64,000 nt of DNA from Botryllus schlosseri (taxonomy: Eukaryota), in the NCBI GenBank assembly GCA_051294905.1, contig CM119372.1:39620001-39684000 (forward strand), read 5' to 3'. The first letter of the stretch is position 1; each line of letters starts with the position of its first letter. Shown here in pieces: positions 17,839-18,095 of the stretch. The position numbers were made by a program, and so were the translations under genes. The notes below the pieces were generated by a model, which saw nothing but the letters and a program-made list of their open reading frames with translations, ran no database searches and was not told the DNA's origin.

Positions 17839-18059
17839 TGTGGTGATTGTTGTGATTGTATAAGTGCTGATTACTGTAATTAGTTTACTTCGCTCTGTTC
17901 ATTCCTTTCGTACCTCAGTTGCTTATATCTGTGTTGTCGAGTGCATGTGTTGTAGTTTCGTGAAGTTGATTGTAGCCGAATTTCAGTTAATAAAAACCTA
18001 GAAAGCTGTCAAGCAGTTTCGTCTTCGTCTACCTACGCTTTCCTCGAAAGGTCAACACA
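17839..18059 (+). repeat. 5' LTR
   Basis: Direct repeat of 21813-22033; contains TCAGTT and AATAAA. Confidence 0.95.
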
Positions 18060-18095
18060 ATTTTATTAACTGCTTTTGACACAATCGACTCTGGA

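Follow-up and report, generated by a model that had tools for sequence, protein, structure and literature searches.

A Ty3/gypsy LTR retrotransposon found in the window, that is, in the whole 64,000-nt stretch of Botryllus schlosseri DNA that was analysed, very probably primes its own reverse transcription in the manner of Tf1, with the start of its R region folding on the primer-binding site (PBS), being cut by RNase H and having its 3'-OH extended. The usual account of LTR retrotransposons and retroviruses has them borrow a host tRNA for this step. It is established that the two arms are complementary, where exactly they lie, that they covary in relatives, where poly(A) is added and that a TGG-type site is absent.

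The element lies on the plus strand at window 17839-22033 and is a complete, compact (4.2 kb), single-frame Ty3/gypsy LTR retrotransposon (Table 1). Pfam matches follow the order protease, RT, RNase H and integrase between the LTRs, the order by which Ty3/gypsy elements (Metaviridae) are recognized, and the nearest solved structure to the gag-pol protein is Ty3 Gag-Pol (E=9e-57). Its two LTRs show 3 differences over 221 nt. Four other copies were retrieved with both ends, and all four have perfect 5-bp target-site duplications, which fix the LTR end at 18059 together with the TG...CA termini, and thus a single spacer base, A18060, stands before the complement described below. In the host genome (495 Mb, 219 contigs) at least 40 matches to the LTR were found (40 of 149 candidates scored). 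Adjoining the element are direct repeats at 22212-22475 and 26191-26460, which are 84-85% identical and approximately 3,980 nt apart with short open frames only between them, and which may be the decayed remains of an older, similarly sized LTR element. The window also holds a tandem array of 41-nt period (29105-29547), a tandem duplication of 281 nt with 98% identity (14754-15310), and an open frame of 271 aa on the minus strand (26765-27580) for which Pfam gave no match at E<=0.01.

Table 1. Features of the element and their positions in the window.
Feature	Position	Strand	Basis or remark
5' target-site duplication CCGCT	17834-17838	+	4 of 5 bases equal to CCTCT at 22034-22038
5' LTR, 221 nt, TG...CA	17839-18059	+	direct repeat with 21813-22033
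Proposed self-primer arm, start of R, in initiator-like TCAGTT	17984-17995	+	complement of 18061-18072; covaries in relatives
Poly(A) signal AATAAA inside primer arm	17989-17994	+	poly(A)-tailed reads downstream
Predicted minus-strand strong-stop template (rest of R, U5, spacer A18060), 65 nt	17996-18060	+	inferred from arm positions
Poly(A) addition site, R/U5 border	18010-18012	+	ambiguous over C-A-A since 18011-18012 are A
Proposed PBS, complementary to own R start	18061-18072	+	12/12 bases; low diversity
Right arm of alternative pairing, partner 18007-18019	18068-18081	+	competes with primer helix
gag-pol, one uninterrupted frame, 1227 aa	18096-21779	+	ORF list and domain matches
Two Gag zinc knuckles	18831-18875 and 18894-18935	+	within gag-pol frame
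Protease	about 18993-19280	+	within gag-pol frame
RT	about 19539-20006	+	within gag-pol frame
RNase H	about 20193-20564	+	within gag-pol frame
Integrase	about 20667-21134	+	within gag-pol frame
Polypurine tract GGTGGGGGTGAA	21801-21812	+	adjoins 3' LTR; same bases are the loose ends before 17839 in RNA reads
3' LTR, 221 nt	21813-22033	+	direct repeat of 5' LTR
3' target-site duplication CCTCT	22034-22038	+	partner of 17834-17838

The original prediction, made from the letters alone, held that the 5' LTR is followed by no TGG-type tRNA site and that an exact reverse complement of LTR bases takes its place. Both points are borne out base by base: no TGG occurs in 18060-18092, the 33 nt past the 5' LTR end, and 18061-18072 (TTTTATTAACTG) and 17984-17995 (CAGTTAATAAAA) are exact 12-nt reverse complements. 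When the LTR was shuffled with its dinucleotides preserved, none of 20,000 shuffles matched 18060-18073 with a complement of at least 12 nt, the maximum of 11 nt being reached 11 times, and among 3,680 internal 14-mers of the element the best LTR complement is 8 nt. The 12-nt complementarity is not chance.

The pairing is also kept among the copies within the genome. Out of 30 loci retrieved, 24 copies with leader were aligned, and all 12 pairs are found in 18 of them, with only G-U changes in three and one mismatch in three. Pairwise diversity is 0.035 in the primer arm and 0.014 in the PBS arm against 0.085-0.131 in the surroundings (0.105-0.131 in the LTR segments that flank the primer arm), making the two arms 3-8 times less variable than the sequence around them. 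Among these copies is a subfamily that is approximately 84% identical and has lost 10 nt between the arms, and the low variability of the arms holds there too.

Homologues of the RT-integrase part number more than 1,300, many of them on contigs of approximately 4 kb and most of them approximately 1,200 aa long. Those that carry a name, given by automatic annotation, are 46-55% identical and come from Ciona, Mytilus, aphid, psyllid, Papilio, Caligus, Palaemon, Actinostola, Trichuris and Trichinella, thus spanning cnidarians, molluscs, crustaceans, insects, nematodes and one tunicate. A profile search yielded 74 loci, some on metagenome contigs and others on contigs assigned to bacterial MAGs. 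Eight of the latter (L097-L104; Hyphomicrobiales, Bacteroidetes, Ekhidna, Leptonemataceae, Metamycoplasmataceae) hold an animal-type retrotransposon and are most likely eukaryotic contamination of the MAG bins. In a uniform scan of the 74 loci the 5' region was present in 32, of 37-53% protein identity, and absent in 42. The complementarity that the original prediction had proposed to look for in related elements is present there: 24 of the 32 evaluable relatives have a perfect inverted repeat, 11-18 nt long, with a right arm that adjoins the gag start and lies 1-2 nt past a CA, versus no repeat of at least 11 nt in 531 windows of coding region from the same 32 loci (92,514 nt). The coding-region control replaced a background estimate of 75 repeats in 224,573 nt, a figure that circular contigs present in doubled form and repeats in the flanks had made too high. 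At the same place the other eight relatives have complements of 7-15 nt, namely 14-15 nt in L066, L067, L099 and L102, seen once the estimate of the gag start was dropped, 10 nt in L032, L063 and L100, and in L072 (LTRs 94% identical) 7 nt perfect or 12/14 with two mismatches. Three more loci (L039, L050, L082) carry the signature as well, though not evaluable under the uniform rule. From arm to arm the interval in the relatives is 24-79 nt. As for the LTRs of individual loci, the contigs of L042 and L046 end within the 3' LTR, and an internal repeat of L043 taken for an LTR was discarded when later scans resolved it. A second copy of the primer-binding sequence stands directly past the 3' LTR in L040 and L078, which suggests tandem elements sharing an LTR.

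A stronger form of this comparison is whether the two arms change together, which had likewise been proposed as a check. In a MAFFT alignment of 22 sequences both arms fell in register without pairing information, except that the left arm of L082 was misaligned and counted as unpaired. By our own count the relatives have about 20 different 11-nt primer cores. Standard pairs occupy 86% of the 374 cells versus 30-46% after one side is slid by 1-3 columns, changes on both sides occur in 14 of the 17 pairs (66 cells), and the covariation score is reached by none of 500 shuffles. Compensatory differences are seen also between close pairs such as L047 and L048, or L038 and L042. Together with the conservation within the genome, these compensatory changes strongly support the predicted Tf1-like geometry, in which the PBS position pairs with R of the same element. 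The right arm starts 1 nt past the LTR end in 22/22 aligned sequences, and the CA-A-TTT at the LTR end and the AAA at the primer 3' end are invariant or nearly so. The clade can be recognized by CA-A-TTT... past the LTR, complementary to ...TAAA in R.

RNA data under the same species label consisted of runs of putative-RNA contigs and runs of raw reads. Pure poly(A) tails are found behind 18012 in four reads of a single-cell RNA run (X22), 16-18 nt downstream of the AATAAA, which shows that the signal in the primer arm is used; that the primer overlaps the poly(A) signal had been part of the original prediction. The tails bound R on its right side only; R would then be very short, with the arm at its beginning. 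With its end at about 18011, R would be only ~28 nt if started at 17984, and cutting off the primer would leave ~16 nt of it for strand transfer. Many RNA reads join the polypurine tract to 17839, and thus 3' LTRs are transcribed. Most LTR reads (17839-17948) cover U3 only and break into other sequence at 17947-17948, so that the most expressed LTR copies belong to a variant subfamily or to chimeric transcripts and not to the window copy.

As for the 5' end of the transcript, RNA reads aligned to the element form no read-start pile-up, and the leader (18062-18314) is almost without reads in a bulk RNA run (X24). Reads and one contig of run X1 reach upstream of 17984, and 3' LTR copies, read-through transcripts and DNA are all conceivable sources of this sequence. 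The end of a 1096-nt contig of X1 at 17978 was rejected as an RNA 5' end, since it abuts a C/T polymorphism at 17977 that is present among the genomic copies and the k-mer path across 17983-18013 needs reads running through. A start at A17985, as originally predicted, stays plausible in that an initiator-like AG stands at a fixed 10-11 nt from the primer 3' end in the relatives (A in 18/22 rows, G in 20/22). As to the exact base, columns 36-37, the positions 1-2 nt before the conserved AG, covary as well, and the complement often extends 1-5 nt upstream of it. Either the start is thus more than the initiator A alone, or the primer need not lie at the very 5' terminus, and the alignment argues for an RNA start at 17984 or slightly upstream of it in preference to A17985 itself.

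The RNA start, its cleavage and the strand transfers we infer as follows. Genomic RNA would start at or within a few bases of 17984 and be polyadenylated at ~18011 in the 3' LTR. Its first ~12 nt (17984-17995) would fold back on 18061-18072, one base past U5, and by analogy with Tf1 the RNase H of the element would cut after A17995. The freed 3'-OH would be extended through A18060, U5 and the rest of R to give a 65-nt strong-stop DNA, which would transfer to the 3' R by means of ~16 nt of homology (17996-18011). Synthesis of the plus-strand strong-stop would copy the RNA primer and the PBS would be rewritten from it, which would keep the arms complementary. On this scheme the primer would also carry the initiator-like motif and the poly(A) signal.

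An unlikely variant keeps the same R segment as primer and denies that it is the extreme 5' end; it would be an internal segment of a longer transcript, or the 3' R copy of the same or a co-packaged RNA, excised by RNase H. The complementarity upstream of the conserved AG agrees with such a source, as four alignment columns there (32-35) are still paired in ~55% of rows versus 30-46% for slid columns, and so do the RNA-derived sequence upstream of 17984 and the identical arm in the 3' LTR. The arms, however, always lie close together, the left arm begins in an initiator-like motif at fixed distance, and the pairing, seen in 82-100% of rows for the 13 columns nearest the primer 3' end, drops sharply at 13 nt from it, as would be predicted for an RNA ending at that point. 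Priming from the 5' end of the transcript is the reading that we prefer.

That a host RNA supplies the primer was considered through the tRNAs and through other elements of the same genome. Thirty tRNA loci were compared, a single tRNA-Lys cluster accounting for 31 of their 34 distinct sequences, and the best complement was 5 nt, a weak test as the 34 distinct tRNAs represent 4 anticodon types only. The 64-kb window contains no tRNA gene, and a search of Rfam gave no match. A conserved host tRNA is excluded as primer by the relatives, since the site differs in sequence between hosts yet tracks the LTR of its own element. Four other LTR families of the same genome (L135-L138), ~31% identical to the window element in RT-RNase H, have TGG sites directly past the LTR, and complementarity to the LTR of the same element reaches just 4-6 nt in them; the site of L135 resembles the 3' end of a tRNA-Ser. 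A fifth locus (L139) carries a repeat that is no LTR and was dropped as a control. Further LTR elements that have long open frames are many in this genome, where at least 150 RNase H matches were found (150 of 1,224 candidates scored).

We regard it as very improbable that some host RNA primes while the hairpin serves another purpose, such as masking the 5' poly(A) signal, RNA packaging or dimerisation. In its favour, the poly(A) signal in use at the 3' end does lie in the left arm, the right arm is confined to the 5' context, and the host tRNAs were sampled from few anticodon types. Against this, the base past the LTR is by definition where the minus strand starts and the right arm lies 1 nt away from it in every aligned sequence; TGG is missing, and the site differs between hosts yet matches each element's own LTR. 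With a start near 17984, moreover, the signal would lie ~5 nt from the cap and need no masking.

RNA folding was also examined in connection with self-priming. The original prediction had mentioned a second pairing with 18068-18081, which exists, with a left arm that we place at 18007-18019. Its duplex energy is -12.8 kcal/mol versus -10.1 kcal/mol for the primer:PBS helix, which is AU-rich and weak. The primer:PBS helix is the minimum-free-energy fold when the RNA begins at 17984 or 17978 (-18.4 and -18.5 kcal/mol, respectively), and with 17985 as first base the alternative pairing is better by 0.9 kcal/mol. As the outcome depends on the assumed first base, thermodynamics alone decides nothing. 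The alternative pairing is not conserved in the relatives, whose leaders are a few bases long. Directly past the primer arm, an AAA-RCC is conserved in the 22-row alignment, and a short stem RCCU...AGGY is seen at this place in L038, L041, L042, L046, L062, L097 and others. The minimum-free-energy fold of the arm-to-arm interval opens a stem at its first base in 16 of the 22 rows, a count taken with no shuffle control, and the window's own row is not among the 16. This stem may be the counterpart of the U5-IR stem-loop of Tf1 and retroviruses, a structure that a 1998 paper by Lin and Levin reportedly names in its title. Finally, chance complementarity in AT-rich sequence might be suspected, because both arms are AT-rich and the fold z-score of 17985-18100 is an unremarkable 0.30, but this reading is already refuted by the shuffles, the control windows and the strong covariation.

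The extent of the signature was followed on a quick maximum-likelihood tree. A clade of 26 rows (SH-aLRT 99) unites the window element, 14 loci with the signature and 11 database proteins, and leaves L135-L138 outside. Loci with the signature occur in every major branch of this clade, beside proteins of Caligus, Mytilus, Ciona, Actinostola, Trichuris/Trichinella and insects, and for this reason the signature looks ancestral to it. One protein of Ciona intestinalis, 55% identical to the window element, groups with it. The chromodomain, by which Tf1/sushi elements are recognized, was found in none of the 27 aligned members at E<=0.01.

To our knowledge, fission-yeast elements are the only ones in which self-priming has been shown, and it has been predicted in a few groups of chromoviruses and Copia elements; no report of it in a chromodomain-less animal Gypsy clade was found in the literature searched, with older subscription papers lying outside that search. 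Whether an old, animal-wide, chromodomain-less Gypsy clade as a whole copies itself without tRNA, one RNA stretch of ~12-14 nt being initiator, poly(A) signal and primer at once, we consider evenly balanced. If it holds clade-wide, self-priming would be ancestral to the Tf1/sushi chromoviruses or would have evolved independently outside them. Self-priming in a widespread animal clade would widen the known range of the mechanism and would explain why annotation pipelines that search for tRNA sites return 'no PBS'. It would also offer a very small natural module of overlapping initiator, poly(A) signal and primer, which can be tested by 5'-end mapping.

Among known systems the closest in geometry is Tf1, in which the first 11 bases are described as pairing with the PBS past U5 and RNase H as cutting between bases 11 and 12 (PMC7175516). 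Self-priming is described as shown for Tf1 of S. pombe and proposed for Tf2 and for Tj1 of S. japonicus (PMC4600332). In the window element, too, the putative RNA start pairs past U5, with a 12-nt arm at the R start, 65 nt upstream of the site, and many of its relatives have a predicted stem-loop directly past the primer arm that recalls the U5-IR. Unlike Tf1, Tf2 and Tj1, which are chromoviruses, the clade of the window element lacks the chromodomain and lives in animal hosts, and the window element differs further in a proposed primer that overlaps a used poly(A) signal, a putative R of ~28 nt and two Gag zinc knuckles. Self-priming has further been proposed for the fungal Maggy, Skippy, Cft-1 and Boty, vertebrate sushi, the moss Tcn1 and the plant TAR elements of Ty1/copia (PMC4600332, PMC6934838, PMC6317226), the self-primers of Tf1/sushi, Tcn1 and TAR being predicted from post-LTR bases complementary to the own LTR (PMC6317226, PMC6934838). 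The Dictyostelid Skipper elements are described as being without such complementarity (PMC5006619). These other predicted self-primers belong to chromoviruses or Copia, whereas the window element is a chromodomain-less animal Gypsy.

In its general build the window element is like the Mag lineage (Mag, SURL, Jule) and Cigr-1, being compact and single-framed, with short LTRs, duplications of 5 bp and a broad range of animal hosts. The LTRs of Mag A are described as having a clear AATAAA, no conserved TATA box and an undefined U3/R border (PMC3601003). The original prediction had called the element chromodomain-free, which stands, and its Gag knuckles Mag-like, a label that could not be established. 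The Mag elements of Culex are reported to have tRNA-Leu, tRNA-Ser or tRNA-Arg sites (PMC3286476), the putatively Mag-type, single-frame L135 is only 31% identical, and the window element has no site like the tRNA-Leu or tRNA-Ser site of these mosquito members. Cigr-1 of Ciona is treated as a separate clade (PMC6238403), and a Ciona protein groups with the window element. What is distinctive here, set against all of these systems, is that an initiator-like motif, a poly(A) signal and a proposed primer share one short segment, in an arrangement conserved across a wide animal clade.
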